From: an uncultured bacterium
GTDB lineage: Bacteria > Patescibacteriota > Minisyncoccia > Moranbacterales > UBA2206
Direction of reading: 5' to 3'
DNA length: 64,000 bases
Assembly: GCA_903831805.1 (NCBI GenBank)
Contig: CAIKZD010000014.1
Location: forward strand, 2,078-66,077
Within the stretch, counting starts at the first letter, position 1. Each line of letters opens with the position of its first letter. The position numbers were made by a program, and so were the translations under genes. Shown piece after piece: positions 4,347 through 63,816 of the stretch. The notes below the pieces were generated by a model. It saw only the letters and a list, made by a program, of their open reading frames with translations. It was not told the DNA's origin and ran no database searches.

Positions 4347-5300
4347 TTAATTTAATTTACAAATATTTTTAAGGGCAGCGGTATCTTCCGCTGTCAACGT
4401 GGGAGTGTTAATATCTTGATCACCGATCAGATAATACATGATTGATTTGGAATTTTCCACGTGCGGCAGACCGAGATAGTGGCCCAATTCATGGATCAAA
4501 GTCAGGCGCAAATCTGACGCCGCCTTGAATTGATAAACATTGATTTCTTTTCCGTCAAAAACGCCTTTTTCAAATTCCTGCATGTCGCCGTATTGGCTTT
4601 TATAAGTCGCCACGGTGCTATTATAGTTCGCGACCATTTGATTCTCTTTTTTGGCCAAACTGTTAGTTTGATTGACCAGTGCATTGATGGCAGCGCCTTC
4701 TTGCTGGATTTTATTAAATCGATCATTTAGATCGTTCTTGGTTTTTTTCAATTTACTATATTCATCTGCCGGCGCACCACCTTGGCCATTCCAATAGCTG
4801 ACTTCGGCGTTATATTTGTCCAGCTTATTTTTGTAATCCACCACGTCGTTATTATAATTATCAATCTTTTTCTTATAATCTACGCTCAGCGAATTATATT
4901 GTTGCGTCAACACCTTATCGGTCGCTTCCAGACTTTGCAAATTTTGCTCTAACTCCGCCGCCGCCACAGATTGTTCTTGCCGATTGTCAAAAACTAAATT
5001 TATCTTGAACGCCGCCGCTGGATCATATTGCAGTAGCACCTTCCCTTCACCCTTATTCCAAACCTCCGCCGCCTGGGTAGCTAGTTTTTCTAAATCATCC
5101 TGGGAAATGCCAAATTTTGGATCGATATTGCCAATGGCATATGTCAATGGCTTAGAACACGGTTGATCCAGGCCCAATTCCTTTTGCACCGCCATTTTCA
5201 CCTCTCGCACCACTTCCTGTGTTTGAGTTTTGTTGGTCAGCACTATCCCCCAAAAAGAAAAGAGGGCGATGAGCAAGAGATATTTAAAAAAATTCTTCAT
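4347..5300 (-). CDS. membrane-anchored zinc metalloprotease (metzincin/matrixin-like HExxHxxGxxH) with central coiled-coil
   Basis: N-terminal TM helix LLLIALFSFWGIVL, HELGHYLGLPH zinc motif followed by a Met-turn-like SIMYY, and a long Q/N/K-rich coiled-coil in the middle. It lies between the hydrogenase small and large subunit genes with 18-29 nt gaps. Confidence 0.7.
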   Translation of the reverse strand: MKNFFKYLLLIALFSFWGIVLTNKTQTQEVVREVKMAVQKELGLDQPCSKPLTYAIGNIDPKFGISQDDLEKLATQAAEVWNKGEGKVLLQYDPAAAFKINLVFDNRQEQSVAAAELEQNLQSLEATDKVLTQQYNSLSVDYKKKIDNYNNDVVDYKNKLDKYNAEVSYWNGQGGAPADEYSKLKKTKNDLNDRFNKIQQEGAAINALVNQTNSLAKKENQMVANYNSTVATYKSQYGDMQEFEKGVFDGKEINVYQFKAASDLRLTLIHELGHYLGLPHVENSKSIMYYLIGDQDINTPTLTAEDTAALKNICKLN

Positions 5301-5329: not shown

Positions 5330-6172
5330 CTATGCCATCTTCTCCTCAATGTCATCTCGCATACCATAGATTTCCGTGGTGTTTTCAAACTCTTCATCAC
5401 TCATCATATTTTTCAGCGTGGCGCGCATGGCTTTCACATTCCCCGTCGGCCGCAGGCCGCGACAACCTTGACACATCATGCGGCTGGTTGGACACACCGC
5501 ATTGCACCCACCCAAAATCATCGGTCCAAAACACGGTTTTTTGTCGAGCAAAAGACAGCGATTGCCCGCTTTCTTGCATTCCACACACACTGGCGTATCG
5601 GAAATGGTCGGAATGCGCCCCGCAATCAGTTCCGGAATGTACTTCAAAAACTCTTCGGCGTTGATGGGACAACCCGGAAAAGTGAAGTCCACTTTCACAA
5701 AATTATCAATCTCTTTGACTTCTTCGTTCTGGATGCCTTGGATATATTTATAGACATGTTTTATAGTGTTGGTCTTTTCGTGATAGTTCCTGATTTCCGG
5801 AATGCCACCCATAGCCGCGCAGTTTCCCAAAGCGCATAAAATTTTAGACCTTTTTCGAGCCTCCTGTAATGTTTTCACATTGGCTTCTGTCATTGGGTTG
5901 CCTTCTACAAAAACTATATCCAGCTCACCGCCGGCATCCTCTTCATCTTCAATCAAACGAAAATCCACAATTTCCACCAGCTCAGTCAATTGCAGGAATC
6001 TCTCGCCGAGATCAAGTAGTGCAAATTGACAACCCTCGCACGAAGTCAGGCTAACAATGGCAATTTTAGGTTTCTTCTTGTCCCGCGATTCTGCCGTAGG
6101 CAGAATTTTGCGGGAATTTTTATTTTTCATTTTAAAAAAGTTAAGGTTATTTTCACTTCTATATTTTAACAT
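5330..6172 (-). CDS. [NiFe]-hydrogenase small subunit (group 3-type, NuoB-like fold)
   Basis: IAIVSLTSCEGCQ proximal-cluster motif, further Cys clusters (GCPINAEEF, CVECKKAGNRC, GGCNAVCPTSRMMCQGC). The start could alternatively be the ATG at 6130. Confidence 0.85.
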   Translation of the reverse strand: MLKYRSENNLNFFKMKNKNSRKILPTAESRDKKKPKIAIVSLTSCEGCQFALLDLGERFLQLTELVEIVDFRLIEDEEDAGGELDIVFVEGNPMTEANVKTLQEARKRSKILCALGNCAAMGGIPEIRNYHEKTNTIKHVYKYIQGIQNEEVKEIDNFVKVDFTFPGCPINAEEFLKYIPELIAGRIPTISDTPVCVECKKAGNRCLLLDKKPCFGPMILGGCNAVCPTSRMMCQGCRGLRPTGNVKAMRATLKNMMSDEEFENTTEIYGMRDDIEEKMA

Positions 6173-6261: not shown

Positions 6262-7560
6262 ATGCGGACCCTTAACTTTCCTAACCATAATAAAAGAACT
6301 ATTTTAGCCCTCGGCGCCGAATCCGCCGGCAATTTTTCCATATATAAAAATGGAAAAATATATTTTTCCGCAGACTTCGGAGACTTATTAGAAGAGAATA
6401 ATTTTATTGCTTTCAAAAAAGCCGTTTTGGTTTTTTTAAAAAAAGAGAAAATTACCCCGGATATTATCCTCACTGATTTGCATCCCCTCATGAAAACAAC
6501 TTTGTGGGGTGAAGAATTGGCCCAAAAATACTCCGCCAAAGGCGGATCCGCCTCTGGCGGAAAGGCTGAACATATCCAGGTCCAACACCACCACGCCCAT
6601 ATTTTTTCTGCCATCGGAGATTATCTTTCCCCCTCCTCTGTACCCAGGGGAGGGCTGGGGAGGGGTTCTGGAAATTTACCCAACACTTTATTTACCATCG
6701 CCATGGACGGCACGGGCTACGGCGAAGATGAAAAAATTTGGGGCGGAGAAATTTTCAAAGTCACCTCAAAACCCTCTCCCCTTGTACTCAGGGGGAGATG
6801 TCCGGTACTCCGGACAGAGGGGGTTCGTGTTGAACGCATCGGCCACCTAGAAAACCAAACAATGATTGGCGGAGAACTGGCTATCCGCGAGCCAGCTCGC
6901 ATACTGATTGCCATTTTATCCAAATTCCTATCCAAAAAAGAAGTTTTTAATTTTGTCAAAAAATATTATTCAAAAAATGAATTTGAATTACTGCACAGTC
7001 AACTTGGGCAAAATTTCAACTGCCTGGAAACATCCAGCACCGGAAGGATTTTAGATGCTATATCTTTACTATTAGGTTTTTGTGGCAATGTTAGAAAGTA
7101 CAAGCACGAACCAATCGACCTTTTGGAAAAAAATTCCACCGAGCCATACATCTTTAAACCAATTATAGAAAATAACATCTTGCAAACTACGCCACTTTTT
7201 GCATATCTAATAAAAAATATCCACCAAAACAAAAAACGCCTCGCCGCCACGGCGCAATTATATATCGCAAAGGGTTTACATGAAATAATTCAATCATATT
7301 GTCATCCTGAGCGGAGTCTGTACTCGGACGCAGTCGAAGGATCTGCCAATGAACACTACCAGCAATGCCACAAAGCAGATTCTTCGACTTCGCTCCGCTC
7401 CGCTCAGAATGACAGCATCTTCTTTTCCGGCGGCCTCGCCAGCAATAAAATAATTTCAGTTTACTTAGAATCCCAAGGCGCCTACGCTTCAAAAATAGTC
7501 CCGCGCGGAGACAATGGGTTAAGCTTTGGACAAATAGTCTATTACTTATTGAAAAAATAA
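6262..7560 (+). CDS. hypF: HypF-like carbamoyltransferase, Kae1/YrdC-type C-terminal domain only (no acylphosphatase or Zn-finger domains); carries 3 in-frame palindromic insertions
   Basis: ILALGAESAGNFSI, IQVQHHHAHI, AMDGTGYGEDEKIWGGE, GGELAIREPARI and a C-terminal GGLASNK...PRGDNGLSFGQ all match the HypF C-terminal domain. Length 432 aa versus about 750 for full HypF. Confidence 0.75.
   Translation: MRTLNFPNHNKRTILALGAESAGNFSIYKNGKIYFSADFGDLLEENNFIAFKKAVLVFLKKEKITPDIILTDLHPLMKTTLWGEELAQKYSAKGGSASGGKAEHIQVQHHHAHIFSAIGDYLSPSSVPRGGLGRGSGNLPNTLFTIAMDGTGYGEDEKIWGGEIFKVTSKPSPLVLRGRCPVLRTEGVRVERIGHLENQTMIGGELAIREPARILIAILSKFLSKKEVFNFVKKYYSKNEFELLHSQLGQNFNCLETSSTGRILDAISLLLGFCGNVRKYKHEPIDLLEKNSTEPYIFKPIIENNILQTTPLFAYLIKNIHQNKKRLAATAQLYIAKGLHEIIQSYCHPERSLYSDAVEGSANEHYQQCHKADSSTSLRSAQNDSIFFSGGLASNKIISVYLESQGAYASKIVPRGDNGLSFGQIVYYLLKK
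6630..6690. repeat. GC-rich palindromic insertion inside hypF reading frame (encodes SPSSVPRGGLGRGSG)
   Basis: cccctcctctgtacccaggggagggctggggagggg forms cccctcc/ggagggg arms. It interrupts the conserved HypF block between AIGDY and TLFTIAMDGTGYG. Confidence 0.6.
6770..6835. repeat. Second palindromic insertion in hypF, related to the 6630 copy, with a nested tgtccggtactccggaca hairpin
   Basis: aaccctctccccttgtactcagggggag...gagggggtt. It shares a ccctcYcc..tgtacYcaggggRag core with the 6630 element and encodes KPSPLVLRGRCPVLRTEGVRV between conserved GGEIFKV and ERIGHL. Confidence 0.6.
7300..7415. repeat. About 116-bp palindromic element (TGTCATCCTGAGCG...CGCTCAGAATGACA termini) inserted in-frame in hypF
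   Basis: Left arm tgtcatcctgagcggagtctgtactcggacgcagtcgaaggatctg, right arm cagattcttcgacttcgctccgctccgctcagaatgacag. It is homologous to the intergenic element at 19270-19409 and encodes CHPERSLYSDAVEGSANEHYQQCHKADSSTSLRSAQNDS. Confidence 0.75.
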
Positions 7561-7561
7561 T

Positions 7562-7610
7562 TGTCATTCCTGCCCCCGCCTAAGCGAGGATAAACTCCGG
7601 CAGGAATCCA
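7562..7610. repeat. Small palindromic element (GTCATTCCTGCC...GGCAGGAAT) immediately after hypF stop
   Basis: cattcctgcc / ggcaggaatc 10-bp arms. Same terminus family as 38458-38512 and 40950-40978. Confidence 0.6.
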
Positions 7611-7649
7611 GTCTCCTATCTTAGAAATTTAATATTTTTCAAAATTAAA

Positions 7650-7727: not shown

Positions 7728-8171
7728 CTACTCATCAGGCTTAACTTTCATCTCGCCGATCCGCAAAATAGCAATGCGTTCGCCTGGCGCCTGACGATCA
7801 TATTCTGGGCCTAATTTTGGCGGATTAAGATTAACCGAGGTTTCATATCCTGAAACCATGCCAATGACAATCTGGATTATCCATAAAATCTGGTCTATGC
7901 CCTCAGCTTCCGCCAAGCAATCAGATAGCATAAAAAGACAACCTCGCTCTTTCTCTGATTTACCTATTCCTACCCACAAACCACGTCCATCTCTAACAGG
8001 AATTATTGATGGCCCGGTTTTTTTCCCGTCAGTACGAGTACCCTGAAAAATCCAGAGTTCATCTCCTGGCTTGCCCTTTCCAAAGATGTAGCTAATTTTT
8101 GAATCTTTTTTATCAATTTTCGTCCCAATTACTATACCAGGACAAGTCAACTCATGCTTCTTATCTCCCAT
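7728..8171 (-). CDS. hypothetical protein in hyp cluster
   Basis: ORF MGDKKHELTCPGIVIGTKIDKK... with no recognisable motif. It has its own terminator and sits between hypE and divergent hypF. Confidence 0.45.
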   Translation of the reverse strand: MGDKKHELTCPGIVIGTKIDKKDSKISYIFGKGKPGDELWIFQGTRTDGKKTGPSIIPVRDGRGLWVGIGKSEKERGCLFMLSDCLAEAEGIDQILWIIQIVIGMVSGYETSVNLNPPKLGPEYDRQAPGERIAILRIGEMKVKPDE

Positions 8172-8286
8172 AACATCCCTCCTTATCACTTATATATTTT
8201 ATGGTTTTGGAAATAAGCTCCCGTAAGAACACGACGAATTGTAAAACAGCTGCAACTATATATACTATATTAAAATAACATTTTTG

Positions 8287-9306
8287 TCAACAAATCCTCG
8301 GCACCAACTTCCCCCGTGGCACTTCTATGCGGCGCAGTCCGCCGAGTTCAGTTTTAACAAAAACCCCATTGCCGCGAAAAGTCTGGCCGATAACCCTCGC
8401 TTCAGGATTAAATTTTTGCAAAATGCTTAAAACTTTTTTGACATTTTTCGGCGCCACCGAAGCGATAAACCGCCCTTCAGACGCCAAAGAAAAAATATCA
8501 AGTCCCAAAAGTTCTGTCACAGCCACTGTTTCTTTCTTATACGGCAAAGTTTTTTCGTCCAACACCACTTTAACGCACGACTTCTCCGCCATCTCATTCA
8601 AGTTAGCGGACAGTCCGCCGCGCGTCGGGTCTTTACAAGCGTTGAGATATTTTCCCACTTTTTCAATTTCGCGGTGAAGCGGCGTGCAATCGCTTTGAAT
8701 TTTAGTTTTGTAATTAAAGCGCTTAGCCAAAAGTGTCACTGTGTGTTCACCCAAATCGCCGGAAGAAATGACATAGTCACCCGTTTGCATACCGCCATTC
8801 GAAATGATATTTTGCGCGAGACCCACGCCACTGGTAGTGATTTCAATCTTATCTATTTTACCTTTCTCCGTCACTTTCGTGTCGCCTGTCACAATCGGCA
8901 CGCCAGTTTCGCGGGAAACTTGGCCAATGGACGCCATGATTTTTTTCAAATCATTCATCGGAAATCCCTCTTCCAAAACAATACTAAGGCCAATTCCAAT
9001 CGGCCGTGCGCCCATCATCGCCAGATCATTGATCGTCCCACACATCGCAATCTTCCCAATATTCCCGCCCGGAAAGAAAATCGGATCCACAATAAAGGCA
9101 TCGGTCGTGAAGACCAAATTGCCTGCATCCGTAGAGACGCGATTAATCGCGTCTCTACCCAAGCTAAACACCGCCCCATCATCCCCCGTATTTTTCCACT
9201 TCGATTTCACGGTGAAATTCTTCCTGATTTCTGCAATGATTTCGGCCGATTTCTTCCCTCCACCACCGTGCTCGAGAGTCACCTTGTCAGATTGTTTTGT
9301 TGCCAT
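8287..9306 (-). CDS. hypE: hydrogenase maturation carbamoyl dehydratase HypE
   Basis: PurM-like fold signatures and the characteristic C-terminal PRIC. Confidence 0.88.
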   Translation of the reverse strand: MATKQSDKVTLEHGGGGKKSAEIIAEIRKNFTVKSKWKNTGDDGAVFSLGRDAINRVSTDAGNLVFTTDAFIVDPIFFPGGNIGKIAMCGTINDLAMMGARPIGIGLSIVLEEGFPMNDLKKIMASIGQVSRETGVPIVTGDTKVTEKGKIDKIEITTSGVGLAQNIISNGGMQTGDYVISSGDLGEHTVTLLAKRFNYKTKIQSDCTPLHREIEKVGKYLNACKDPTRGGLSANLNEMAEKSCVKVVLDEKTLPYKKETVAVTELLGLDIFSLASEGRFIASVAPKNVKKVLSILQKFNPEARVIGQTFRGNGVFVKTELGGLRRIEVPRGKLVPRIC

Positions 9307-10427: not shown

Positions 10428-10435
10428 GCGGACAG

Positions 10436-10469
10436 TCTGCTGTAATCAGCGGACTGTCCGCGCTCTTTT
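10436..10469 (-). promoter_or_regulatory. Strong hairpin in hypC-hypD intergenic spacer
   Basis: gcggacagtc tgctg taat cagcg gactgtccgc has a 10-bp perfect outer stem and no U-tract. Possible processing or attenuation site. Confidence 0.35.
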
Positions 10470-19269: not shown

Positions 19270-19409
19270 CTGTCATCCTGAGCGAAGTCCGCACTCGGAC
19301 GCAGTCGAAGGATCTGTTCTGTGTTACCACTAGATCTATAAACATAACAGCGCCAGTGGCAACCTAAGGCAGATTCTTCGACTTCGCTGCGCTACGCTCA
19401 GAATGACAA
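19270..19409. repeat. About 140-bp palindromic element, intergenic copy of the family inserted in hypF (7300-7415)
   Basis: tgtcatcctgagcgaagtccgcactcggacgcagtcgaaggatctg...cagattcttcgacttcgctgcgctacgctcagaatgacaa matches the hypF copy arm-for-arm with a different central loop. Confidence 0.75.
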
Positions 19410-33625: not shown

Positions 33626-33665
33626 CAGACGTAGAGACGCAGCACTGCTGCGTCTCTACGCTGCG
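33626..33665 (-). terminator. hairpin terminator downstream of giant surface protein gene
   Basis: cgtagagacgcagca ctgctgcgtctctacg is a perfect 15-bp inverted repeat. It shares the GTAGAGACG core with the palindrome at 39706-39734. Confidence 0.5.
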
Positions 33666-38342: not shown

Positions 38343-38457
38343 TAAATTTTTCATGCATTTTTGTTTTTATTATAAAAAGTTTTATGTGTATTTGTCATAC
38401 TCGCGTATGCGGGTATCCAGTCGCTAAGTAATAAGTTTCTACACTAGATTCCTGCCC

Positions 38458-38512
38458 GCTTCGCCATAGCTCCAGCGAGGCGAGCCTGCGCAGGAATGAC
38501 ATATTGACTGTT
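38458..38512. repeat. palindromic element (TTCCTGC...GCAGGAATGACA family) between ORF6N gene and giant gene
   Basis: gattcctgcccgcttcgccatagctccagcgaggcgagcctgcgcaggaatgacat. Confidence 0.55.
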
Positions 38513-38570: not shown

Positions 38571-39101
38571 TCATCCTTTGAAACCTATCGGCGACTGCGG
38601 CTTGATGTCTTTCTCTTTTGTTTCTATAATAGACTTTATCGCGTCAAAAACTATCTTGAACTTGTTGTCATATTTCTTTTCCATCAACTCGATCTTAGCT
38701 TGTAAATCCTTATGGCTAGAGAGTACTTCGCGCAATTTTATGAAAACCCGAACGATTTGAATACTCACTCCAATGGCAATCTCACTCTTTAATACTGCCG
38801 ATAACATCATCACGCCTTGCTCTGTAAAAACATAAGTCCTATATTTAGAATATTTCCCCATTTCTAAGGTACCAAATTGGTACCTTAGAAATTCTGTTTC
38901 TTTTTTATCCAATTGAAACATGAAGTCTTCAGGAAAACGTGATATATTCCTTTTAACAGCTCTATTGAGCGCTTTGGTTTCCACGCCATAAAGCTCCGCT
39001 AAATCACGATCAAACATCACCTTTTTGCTACGAATATAATATATTTTCCCCATTATCCTTTCAAATGGAATAGCCGATACTGCTTTTTGTTTTTGTTTCA
39101 T
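38571..39101 (-). CDS. ORF6N (KilA-N-like) domain protein
   Basis: KVMFDRDLAELYGVETKALNRAVKRNISRFPEDFMFQL matches the ORF6N DNA-binding domain found in phage antirepressor-like proteins. Confidence 0.7.
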   Translation of the reverse strand: MKQKQKAVSAIPFERIMGKIYYIRSKKVMFDRDLAELYGVETKALNRAVKRNISRFPEDFMFQLDKKETEFLRYQFGTLEMGKYSKYRTYVFTEQGVMMLSAVLKSEIAIGVSIQIVRVFIKLREVLSSHKDLQAKIELMEKKYDNKFKIVFDAIKSIIETKEKDIKPQSPIGFKG

Positions 39102-39136: not shown

Positions 39137-40432
39137 TCACTCTTTTATTTTTCCGCAAGCTGTCCCGGCTGCATGTCCCGTGCTCCAGGCTATCTGCAAA
39201 TTGTAGCCGCCAGTTGGGCCGTCGAGATCCAAGACTTCGCCAACTAGATACAGGTTGGGCACAATTTTAGAACGCAGCGTTTTCGGCTCGACTTCTTTCA
39301 GGTCCACTCCGCCGCGCGTCATCATTGCTTGCTCAAAGCCGGTGTGGCCGATGACCGTCAGGCGCAGATCTTTGAGCAAACTTACAATGCACGCCCGCTC
39401 AAGCTTAGTAACGATATTGATTTTTTTCGCTGGCAAAATATCCGCCAGGCGCAAGATAATTTTCGCCAGCTTGGGCGGACATAGTTCAGGCAAGTAATTA
39501 AGGATATCTTTATTGGCAAATTTTATGAAATCTTTTTGCAAAAATATATCCAGTGCCTTTCTATCTATTTCCGGTTTTAAATCTATAGAGATGGAAAGTG
39601 GCATGTTTTCCGGTGTAAATTCCGTTATCTTCCGACTGAGGTTCAAAACCGCCGGACCACTGAGACCGAAATGGGTGAAGATCGCATCGCCCATTGTAGA
39701 GACGAGGCAGTGCCTCGTCTCTACGGGTAATTTACCGCGCACTAAACTAATCTTAACATTTTCCAAACTCACGCCCTGCGCTTCTTTGACCCATTTTTCC
39801 TGAATCTTTAGAGGCACCAACGTCGGCATGGGCGTGATAATTTTATGTCCGCAATCGCGCGCCCATGAATATCCGTCCCCCGTCGCACCGGTCGCCGGAT
39901 AAGACTTTCCACCGCTGGCCAGGATAAACTTTTTGGCATGAATAATTTTATTTTTCAAACGTACCCCTGTGATTCTTTTTTGATTGCCGTCCTCCGAAAA
40001 CTCAAAGCCTAAAACTGTCGCACCGAACAAAATTTCCACTCCATTTTTTTGCAAATAATTTTTGAGTGCCCGCAAAACATCCGCGGCTTTATCTGACACT
40101 GGAAAAACTTTTCCTCCCTTTTCAATCTTAGTCGGCACTTTTCGCTCGGCCAAAAAATCCATCATTTCTTGCGGCCCGAACAGACTAAGCGAGGAAAAAA
40201 GAAATTTTCCCTTCTTACCAATTTCTGCCACTAATTTTTTATCGTCAAACTCAGCCTGCGTCACATTGCACCGCCCGCCGCCCGTCATCAAAAGTTTATT
40301 CCCCAAGCTTTCATTTTTTTCCACCAAAAGCACCCGCGCGCCCAATTCCGCGGCCCTCCCCGCCGCCATCATCCCAGCTGGCCCGCCGCCGATGACGATG
40401 ACATCATATTGTTGATTCTTCAATTTTCTCAT
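39137..40432 (-). CDS. HI0933-like FAD-dependent oxidoreductase (aminoacetone oxidase family) with in-frame palindrome insertion
   Basis: YDVIVIGGGPAGMMAAGRAAELGARVLLVEKN...GGGRCNVTQ N-terminus and a C-terminal GxVLDLDGPTGGYNLQ(I)AW motif. Confidence 0.8.
   Translation of the reverse strand: MRKLKNQQYDVIVIGGGPAGMMAAGRAAELGARVLLVEKNESLGNKLLMTGGGRCNVTQAEFDDKKLVAEIGKKGKFLFSSLSLFGPQEMMDFLAERKVPTKIEKGGKVFPVSDKAADVLRALKNYLQKNGVEILFGATVLGFEFSEDGNQKRITGVRLKNKIIHAKKFILASGGKSYPATGATGDGYSWARDCGHKIITPMPTLVPLKIQEKWVKEAQGVSLENVKISLVRGKLPVETRHCLVSTMGDAIFTHFGLSGPAVLNLSRKITEFTPENMPLSISIDLKPEIDRKALDIFLQKDFIKFANKDILNYLPELCPPKLAKIILRLADILPAKKINIVTKLERACIVSLLKDLRLTVIGHTGFEQAMMTRGGVDLKEVEPKTLRSKIVPNLYLVGEVLDLDGPTGGYNLQIAWSTGHAAGTACGKIKE
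39706..39734. repeat. 29-bp perfect palindrome inside the HI0933-like CDS (encodes VETRHCLVST)
   Basis: gtagagacgaggca g tgcctcgtctctac. Confidence 0.65.
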
Positions 40433-40949: not shown

Positions 40950-40978
40950 TGTCATTCCTGCCTACGCAGGAATGACAG
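40950..40978. repeat. perfect hairpin element tgtcattcctgc ctac gcaggaatgacag downstream of fusA (likely terminator)
   Basis: 12-bp perfect stem, same terminus family as 7562 and 38458. Confidence 0.6.
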
Positions 40979-63762: not shown

Positions 63763-63770
63763 CTTCAACC

Positions 63771-63816
63771 TAAAGCTCGGCTTTAGGAATTTCCTAAAGC
63801 CGAGCTTTAGGTTTAG
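63771..63816. terminator. 21-bp perfect inverted repeat (bidirectional terminator-like) after deacetylase gene
   Basis: cctaaagctcggctttaggaa tt tcctaaagccgagctttagg. Confidence 0.5.

Follow-up and report, generated by a model that had tools for sequence, protein, structure and literature searches.

Several kinds of palindromic repeat have been found within protein-coding genes, positioned such that the reading frame of the host gene is maintained. For example, Rickettsia palindromic elements (RPEs; Ogata et al. 2000 Science, 2002 Genome Res) are inserted in frame into genes; in the review PMC10969869, they are summarised as repeats of about 100-150 bp. Similarly, repetitive extragenic palindromes (REPs) of the GTAG/CGTC type have been described inside genes of Opitutus, Thauera and Xanthomonas (Di Nocera et al. 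2013, PMC3733652). Here, a comparable arrangement is described in a 64,000-nucleotide stretch of DNA (positions 2,078 to 66,077 of contig CAIKZD010000014.1, hereafter the window), in which the hydrogenase maturation gene hypF, at 6262-7560 of the window, encodes a HypF of a single domain. Very probably, this gene has received four palindromic, selfish repeats that leave its frame intact, are translated as tolerated loops and circulate among Patescibacteria.

Other described systems share parts of this pattern. REPINs, which are REP doublets mobilised by the REP-associated tyrosine transposase (RAYT), are extragenic and vertically inherited, with RAYT itself present in single copy (Bertels and Rainey 2011, PMC3116915). 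[quoted passage not shown] In the mitochondrial genes of Nematomorpha, long inverted repeats occur in frame, with both arms encoding conserved parts of the protein (PMC6649704). Truncation of HypF also has a precedent in Cupriavidus necator HypF1, which is thought to require pre-formed carbamoyl-adenylate (Wolf 1998 and Paschos 2002, cited by PMC9100943). The limited literature collection searched contained no paper linking REP, MITE, REPIN or RAYT sequences to the Candidate Phyla Radiation (CPR, or Patescibacteria), nor any on HypF in these organisms, in agreement with the view, put forward in a preliminary description of this locus, that such elements had not been reported from CPR genomes. 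The gene, its four insertions and an intergenic relative of the longest of them are as follows.

6262-7560, forward strand: hypF coding sequence; 432 aa, with the Kae1-like carbamoyltransferase domain only.
6532-6561, forward strand: element a, a 30-nt double-hairpin palindrome, TCCGCCAAAGGCGGATCCGCCTCTGGCGGA; in frame, encoding the peptide SAKGGSASGG (residues 91-100).
6628-6668, forward strand: element b, a repeat consisting of a C-run and a G-run, TCCCCCTCCTCTGTACCCAGGGGAGGGCTGGGGAGGGG; in frame, encoding SPSSVPRGGLGRG (about residues 123-136).
6772-6826, forward strand: element c, a compound double hairpin, CCCTCTCCCCTTGTACTCAGGGGGAGATGTCCGGTACTCCGGACAGAGGGGGTTC; in frame, encoding PSPLVLRGRCPVLRTEGV (about residues 171-188).
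7300-7414, forward strand: element d, a 115-nt MITE/REPIN-like long palindrome; in frame, encoding CHPERSLYSDAVEGSANEHYQQCHKADSSTSLRSAQND (residues 347-384; CHPERS...SAQND).
19271-19408, forward strand: intergenic copy of element d, between convergent genes and just after a terminator-like hairpin; fold z -6.7.

The product of the hypF open reading frame (ORF) starts with MRTLNFPNHNKRTILALGAES, in agreement with the family consensus. Searches with Pfam identified HypF_C (residues 10-119, E 4e-20) and HypF_C_2 (E 7e-40), the latter broken into three stretches, and no other domain, while TIGR00143, the NCBIfam profile for full-length HypF, was matched over positions 383-684 of 741 with 204 bits, below its cutoff of 466 bits. 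Neither Pfam nor TIGR00143 revealed an acylphosphatase, zinc-finger or YrdC-like domain, and the presence of a divergently transcribed small-subunit gene directly upstream, together with the fit of the N-terminus to the consensus, means that no N-terminal HypF domains are hidden there. The ORF is therefore a one-domain HypF, the Kae1-like module alone, which belongs to the ASKHA fold and passes the carbamoyl group to HypE. The preliminary description of a minimal protein devoid of acylphosphatase and zinc-finger domains was accurate, but its label of 'Kae1/YrdC-type' applies only as far as Kae1, as the YrdC-like domain is missing too. Alignment against the Protein Data Bank (PDB) with phmmer pairs the protein with residues 401-754 of Thermococcus kodakarensis HypF (4G9I; E 7e-24). 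An AlphaFold2 model, built with 120 homologues as input, has a mean predicted local distance difference test score (pLDDT) of 88.6, and its best Foldseek matches are the HypF structures 3VTI, 3VTH and 4G9I, with template modelling scores of 0.72-0.73. Orthologues have 35 invariant residues, including H109, H110, H113, D149 and G150-G152, and the gene is associated with hypC, hypD, hypE and NiFe-hydrogenase genes.

This form is common: 789 homologues were found at E below 1e-5, and each of the 120 closest shows the same pair of Pfam domains, is 339-500 aa in length and is labelled Moranbacteria, Parcubacteria or Patescibacteria. One-domain forms of about 330 aa, with 31-38% identity, also occur in DPANN archaea (loci L033-L045, from Woesearchaeota, Aenigmatarchaeota, Nanoarchaeota and Altiarchaeales), hence the truncated HypF is common to both radiations of ultra-small cells. 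According to PMC9100943, C. necator HypF1 likewise has a single canonical domain and is encoded in a hyp operon; the likeness drawn here is one of domain content, and the Patescibacteria and DPANN proteins form a large separate set that is riddled with repeats. By analogy with HypF1, the HypF of the window would presumably need carbamoyl-adenylate from another source, and no partner gene of the YrdC/Sua5 type was found among the window ORFs tested.

The four insertions are evident when the protein is compared with its relatives. A MAFFT alignment of the 120 homologues contains about 371 core columns out of 926, and to this the query adds four non-core segments, a to d, in columns filled by few or no other homologues; those of element a are otherwise filled only by a single sequence, P0002. 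Elements a-c are gaps in the alignment to 4G9I, and element d lies within residues 339-384, which HMMER leaves unaligned between two matched domains. All four segments are missing from the solved HypF structures and from insertion-free orthologues. In the structural model, low pLDDT is confined to about residues 91-100, 121-140, 171-190 and 351-385, each flanked by confident helices or strands; the score dips to 77 in element a, is 59-72 in b, falls below 50 in c and is 45-58 in d. The insertions therefore fall in surface loops predicted to be disordered, and we infer that translation of the four segments most likely yields floppy loops at the protein surface. The preliminary description had proposed three frame-keeping insertions between conserved segments, and all three were confirmed. 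However, it had missed the fourth, at 6532-6561, and the boundaries it gave as 6630-6690 and 6770-6835 are better drawn at 6628-6668 and 6772-6826, the long element alone keeping essentially the limits assigned to it. Its expectation that the insertions would prove specific to particular lineages is also upheld, as 31 of the 120 homologues are without insertions.

The stability of putative hairpins in the hypF elements was scored using DNA parameters relative to dinucleotide shuffles, unless an RNA fold is stated. Elements a, c and d fold better than their shuffled counterparts (z -4.9, -4.7 and -6.7, respectively); as RNA, element d reaches -56 kcal/mol (z -7.7) and element c has a z score of -3.6. 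Element d is delimited by 17-nt terminal inverted repeats (TIR), TGTCATCCTGAGCGGAG and CTCCGCTCAGAATGACA, with 94% complementarity. Elements a and b are free of stop codons in all six frames, element c in five and the in-gene copy of element d in four, whereas the intergenic copy of d is open in none. The identical HypF protein was found on 18 contigs, and three independent assemblies, from two Logan runs and a JGI metagenome, gave the same hypF DNA, ruling out an assembly chimera, a possibility that the preliminary description had itself raised.

Copies of the same elements were then sought by comparing the DNA of 33 orthologous hypF genes, with sites given as core positions and L-numbers denoting loci of relatives or metagenome contigs. 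Within the window, the claim that the long element has a second, intergenic copy was confirmed at 19271-19408: the arms of the two copies are 93% identical, and the spacers are unrelated, being 28 nt in hypF and 51 nt, or 23 nt longer, in the intergenic copy. The terminal 19-mer of this element has three matches in the window, relative to 0.00 expected from shuffles. In hypF orthologues, element a is found at position 90 in L087, as in the window, and at 291 in L004 and L085. Copies of element b that are 91-95% identical occur at sites 28, 115 and 320 of L086 and at site 192 of L084, and are read in two to three frames, giving peptides such as SPVLRGGLGRG or PLPCTQGRAGEG depending on the frame. 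Element c is present at 115 and 152 in L084, and three times, at 115, 152 and 320, in L085; the DNA of the window copy is 98% identical to that in L084, yet the peptide encoded is SPLVLRGRCPVLR in the window but PLPLYSGGDVRYSGQRGF in L084. Members of the element d family are located at site 319 in L004 and L006 and at 115 in L029, L025 and L030, with variants at 188 and 319 in L008. The same repeats are also found in unrelated genes: element a in a PGM/PMM gene (L004), element b in a FeFe-hydrogenase-like gene (L086) and a GalT-like gene (L095), element c in HypE (L086) and UvrB (L111), and members of these repeat families in a Mur-ligase-like gene (L206). Among the loci sampled, which are biased toward hypF, all 21 copies of elements a-c lie inside ORFs.

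The conservation of these elements differs markedly from that of their host genes. Elements in the window are 91-98% identical to their counterparts in other genomes, the exception being the L085 copy of c (84%), whereas in the same comparisons the four-fold sites of the hypF core are just 35-54% identical. The amino acid sequences of the core nevertheless retain 66-73% identity in spite of this near saturation, indicating that hypF is under purifying selection. It follows that the elements are either far younger than the genes that host them or are kept uniform, and this contrast, together with their occurrence at other sites, in other frames and in other genes, points to mobile or homogenised DNA rather than ancestral loops. 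From the distribution of the copies we infer that the elements are mobile, and the inserts would appear to be neutral.

Such insertions are frequent across the family. When insertions of at least 5 aa are counted, 89 of the 120 homologues have one or more, the total being 217, with a mean of 1.8 and a maximum of six per gene; they are concentrated at hot spots after core positions 320, 151, 274 and 192. The 33 intact orthologues contain 81 such insertions with zero frameshifts and zero internal stops, a constraint on frame and stop codons that is expected of selection on a translated insert, but not of one removed from the RNA or the protein. At the same loci, there are 2.45 insertions per gene in HypF, 0.59 in HypE, 0.24 in HypD and 0.11 in the small subunit, with none in the NiFe large subunit or the M10-like gene; per kilobase, the load of HypF is about four times that of HypE. 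Other families of insert found in HypF homologues include AT-rich sequences (FPISN..., KSQISNLK...) and LPAGRQ-type hairpins.

These observations are best accounted for if the hypF coding sequence has taken up four short palindromic repeats, which represent at least three or four DNA families; families a-c are REP-like and 30-55 nt long, and family d is a 115-nt MITE/REPIN-like element with TIR. A new copy would persist only if the length added kept the frame, if there were no stop in the frame used and if the site were in a surface loop; the condition on stops would be easily satisfied by GC-rich elements open in five or six of their six frames. Once translated into disordered loops, the elements would be tolerated by the ASKHA-fold core, making the one-domain HypF an unusually permissive host for what is probably selfish DNA moving among Patescibacteria lineages.

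A number of results weigh against this interpretation. The hairpin of element b is no more stable than those of shuffled sequences (z 0.0), hence its status as a repeat rests on the cross-genome copies, not on its fold; the preliminary description, which regarded all three of its elements as hairpin-forming, was correct in this regard for c and d but not for b. Within the 64-kb window, elements a, b and c are each present as a single copy and d as two. As d at site 319 and c at site 152 are common to several orthologues, inheritance may account for them in part. At site 152, a 1-nt indel at the 5' edge of the element, compensated 3' of it, is enough to explain why the window and L084 differ in frame, which weakens the use of this difference as proof of independent insertion. 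No target-site duplication was apparent when the flanks of nine d-family copies (two in the window and seven in related loci; element d is 115-138 nt in length) were compared for shared di- to deca-nucleotides, and none of the window ORFs examined had a Pfam match to a transposase, whether RAYT, IS200/605 or another. The length of element d from TIR to TIR was also considered as a test of frame, and discarded: it is 1 mod 3 in six of six in-gene copies, but also in two of three intergenic ones.

Several alternative explanations can be considered in the light of these data. An ancestral origin of the segments, as surface loops that evolve fast in this HypF clade and resemble other sequences through low-complexity convergence, might be suggested by the clustering of insertions at few loop positions (core 115, 152, 188-192, 272 and 319) and by the same peptide being found at the same site in some orthologues. 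The preliminary description had anticipated that its interpretation would fail if orthologues in repeat-free relatives carried the same segments, and some orthologues do have the same element at the same site (d at 319 in L004 and L006, c at 152 in L084 and L085); this does not rescue an ancestral origin, as the elements are near-identical in DNA between genes saturated at synonymous sites, recur at other sites, in other frames, in unrelated genes and in intergenic DNA, and are missing from the 31 insertion-free homologues and all solved HypF structures. For practical purposes this explanation is refuted, its probability being negligible. Alternatively, the elements might never reach the mature protein, through intron-like removal from the mRNA or RNase processing and religation, through ribosome bypass, as in T4 gene 60 or the yeast mitochondrial byp elements, or through protein excision. 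GC-rich palindromic bypass elements occur in Magnusiomyces mitochondria, and an RNA hairpin as stable as that of element d would be awkward for ribosomes. However, removal by any such route would lift the constraint on frame and stop codons, to which all 81 insertions in the 33 orthologues adhere, and the in-gene copy of d is stop-free where the intergenic copy has stops. There is, moreover, no match to an intron or ribozyme in Rfam, where no family matches the elements, and the protein has no intein motifs, Pfam identifying HypF domains alone; non-translation is thus highly improbable.

The remaining alternatives concern selection on the inserts and on the gene. The inserts could have been co-opted, either as RNA hairpins tuning the stability or translation of the hypF mRNA or as peptides with an added function, such as docking HypE or the hydrogenase. 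REPs are known to influence mRNA stability and termination (PMC3733652), the element sequences are conserved far above neutral sites and hypF is far more heavily loaded than its neighbours. Against this, one element can be read in different frames to give unrelated peptides, close orthologues differ freely in whether and where they carry an insertion, with 31 homologues having none, the inserts are predicted to be disordered, and the same families are found in unrelated genes; co-option is accordingly judged unlikely. The heavy load in hypF, relative to 0.59 or fewer insertions per gene in its neighbours, together with the loss of three of the four canonical HypF domains, might instead indicate a decaying relic under relaxed selection, in which the insertions mark early pseudogenisation. 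Such decay is hard to reconcile with reading frames that are intact in 33 of 33 orthologues, with the 35 invariant residues, with the purifying selection evident in a core nearly saturated at four-fold sites, with the retention of hypF within a conserved hyp cluster, or with the one-domain form being widespread in Patescibacteria and DPANN archaea, and is considered very unlikely. Translated, tolerated insertions of selfish repeats hence provide the best explanation of this locus.

Palindromes are also found elsewhere in the window, both in and between genes.

7561-7611, forward strand: palindromic repeat TTGTCATTCCTGC...GCAGGAATCCAG, immediately 3' of the hypF stop codon; fold z -3.1.
9131-9158, reverse strand: GTAG-tagged perfect palindrome in hypE, with arms of 14 and 14 nt, GTAGAGACGCGATT/AATCGCGTCTCTAC (GTAG...CTAC); in frame, encoding RDAINRVSTD; fold z -7.0.
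33630-33660: copy of the GTAGAGACG...CGTCTCTAC palindrome; intergenic, sister of 9131-9158.
39696-39724: copy of the GTAGAGACG...CGTCTCTAC palindrome in an HI0933-like gene (39137-40432, reverse strand); encodes VETRHCLVST, adding about five residues relative to PDB 2I0Z.

Genes other than hypF are affected as well: the palindrome at 9131-9158 lies in frame inside hypE (8287-9306, reverse strand). It is absent from many Patescibacteria HypE orthologues, which are insertion-free at that loop; the loop is itself an insertion hot spot, with other orthologues carrying different inserts there. The hairpin that follows hypF belongs to a third family (TGTCATTCCTGC...GCAGGAATGACA), with intergenic relatives at 38446-38501 and 40950-40978. 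The small-subunit ORF (5330-6172, reverse strand) has a further hairpin, CCCGCGATTCTGCCgtaGGCAGAATTTTGCGGG, in its 5' part (6082-6114), within an N-terminal extension; the small subunit is 280 aa here and 253-266 aa in relatives, and this hairpin may be another in-frame element. Near-perfect palindromes were also observed at 63767-63813 (23-nt arms, intergenic), at 38860-38892 (16-nt arms, inside an ORF6N-domain gene) and at 10428-10461 (15-nt arms, between hypD and hypC). The nucleoside diphosphate kinase encoded at 45269-45877 (reverse strand; 202 aa) matches the Pfam NDK family in two stretches, implying an extra internal segment in which there is no obvious palindrome. Scanning for peaks in GC content proved unsuitable for finding elements, as the 135 peaks identified in this window of 44% GC were mostly ordinary coding sequence.

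In their behaviour, the elements match RPEs and intragenic REPs, which does not in itself establish membership of either family. As with RPEs (summarised in PMC10969869), several palindromic families are found in frame in housekeeping genes that are unrelated to one another, in a genome that is reduced and gene-dense, and between genes as well, with the inserts judged compatible with the protein fold; here too palindromic repeats are in frame in functional genes and in intergenic DNA. The parallel with Rickettsia drawn in the preliminary description therefore stands at the level of function, although in-frame palindromes are not unique to that genus (PMC3733652). The elements are not filed as RPEs, since the likeness is functional only, with no apparent sequence relationship and a host from another phylum. 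Three of the four hypF elements, at 30-55 nt, are much shorter than the sizes given for RPEs in that summary; almost every frame is free of stops, and two or three frames are in use; a single gene accumulates several families, with four insertions here and up to six in orthologues; and near-identical copies are common to genomes that are saturated at synonymous sites. The intragenic REPs are comparable in being short (20-40 bp) GC-rich stem-loops inside known genes, including uvrA and uvrB, sometimes twice per gene, and in encoding 10-30 extra residues argued to be loops or linkers (PMC3733652). Elements a and c are likewise short, GC-rich, imperfect palindromes present in multiple copies, and the palindromes at 9131-9158, 39696-39724 and 33630-33660 all start with GTAG and end with CTAC, but the GTAG/CGTC tag is absent from hypF elements a-d; furthermore, most REPs in PMC3733652 are intergenic, while a-c were found only in ORFs in the hypF-biased loci.

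Element d resembles REPINs in having two conserved inverted arms and a variable spacer, and in high-GC metagenome contigs the b-type motif forms inverted pairs with a distance of 80-100 nt. Unlike REPINs, the copies here are intragenic and spread across divergent lineages, with no RAYT among the window ORFs examined. Element d is also MITE-like, being small and multi-copy, with TIR and no capacity to encode a transposase, but it differs in the absence of target-site duplications at the nine copies and in having no known parent IS. The palindromes of Nematomorpha mitochondria are similarly long inverted repeats in frame within protein-coding genes, but are not multi-copy elements common to several genes or genomes (PMC6649704). 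The hypF locus is notable for how densely it is loaded with insertions, how many families these represent, that several frames are used and that the elements are conserved across lineages.

Searches of metagenomes and viral contigs indicate that the elements belong to broad, poorly described repeat superfamilies. Among the matches listed for the core common to b and c, CCCNTGTACTCAGGGG, most were high-GC soil contigs with the related motif CCCCTCTCCCCTGTACTCAGGGGAGAGGG..GGGGTGAGGGG, and five were low-GC and Patescibacteria-like. In metagenome loci L088-L207, the motif CCCCTCTCCCCTGTACTCAGGGGAGAGGG(T/C)..GGGGTGAGGGG is very common in high-GC contigs and often forms the inverted pairs mentioned above; it has the look of a large REPIN-like superfamily that spans phyla and is related to element b. 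Scans of viral contigs with elements a and c and the terminus of d gave no clear evidence of carriage by phage: element c had no matches, element a had nine, mostly in high-GC contigs, and the d terminus had 12, as single occurrences in assorted contigs, just one of these matches being a complete element. An exhaustive phmmer search with the 42-aa peptide of element d returned two matches only, one of them to a repeat protein.

The host of the hypF cluster is a Moranbacteria-type Patescibacterium. The cluster includes hypA, desulfoferrodoxin, the NiFe large subunit, a Peptidase_M10-like gene, the small subunit, hypE, hypD and hypC, as well as a FeFe-hydrogenase-like/NuoF/NuoE set, and hyp and NiFe-hydrogenase genes flank hypF in relatives as they do in the window. 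The Peptidase_M10 (matrixin)-like gene (4347-5300, reverse strand), which has a long coiled-coil-like insert, is found between the NiFe large- and small-subunit genes, a position kept in relatives, and is an odd member of a hydrogenase operon. An ORF at 7728-8189 (reverse strand; 147-153 aa), without a Pfam match, separates hypF from hypE; as hypE directly follows hypF in L085, L086 and L087, it looks like a lineage-specific addition.

The presence of selfish palindrome families inside CPR coding sequences parallels the situation in Rickettsia, and suggests that protein loops are a refuge for mobile DNA in gene-dense, reduced genomes. Such inserts inflate the apparent divergence of proteins and split domain matches, as with the three pieces of HypF_C_2, and can therefore mislead the annotation, alignment, phylogeny and structure prediction of CPR proteins. 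The one-domain HypF, shared with DPANN, also raises the question of the carbamoyl-adenylate source in these organisms. The near identity of the elements, set against the saturation of their host genes, points to ongoing exchange or to sequence-specific machinery. It can be tentatively speculated, as a possibility that is more doubtful than not, that Patescibacteria host a guild of tiny palindromes, stop-free in nearly all frames, with the loops of protein-coding genes rather than intergenic DNA as their main niche, which move between deeply diverged lineages with no recognisable dedicated transposase and find their most permissive landing pad in the one-domain HypF. Were this the case, it would represent a distinct selfish-DNA lifestyle fitted to reduced genomes dense in genes, and would keep supplying new protein loops across much of bacterial diversity.

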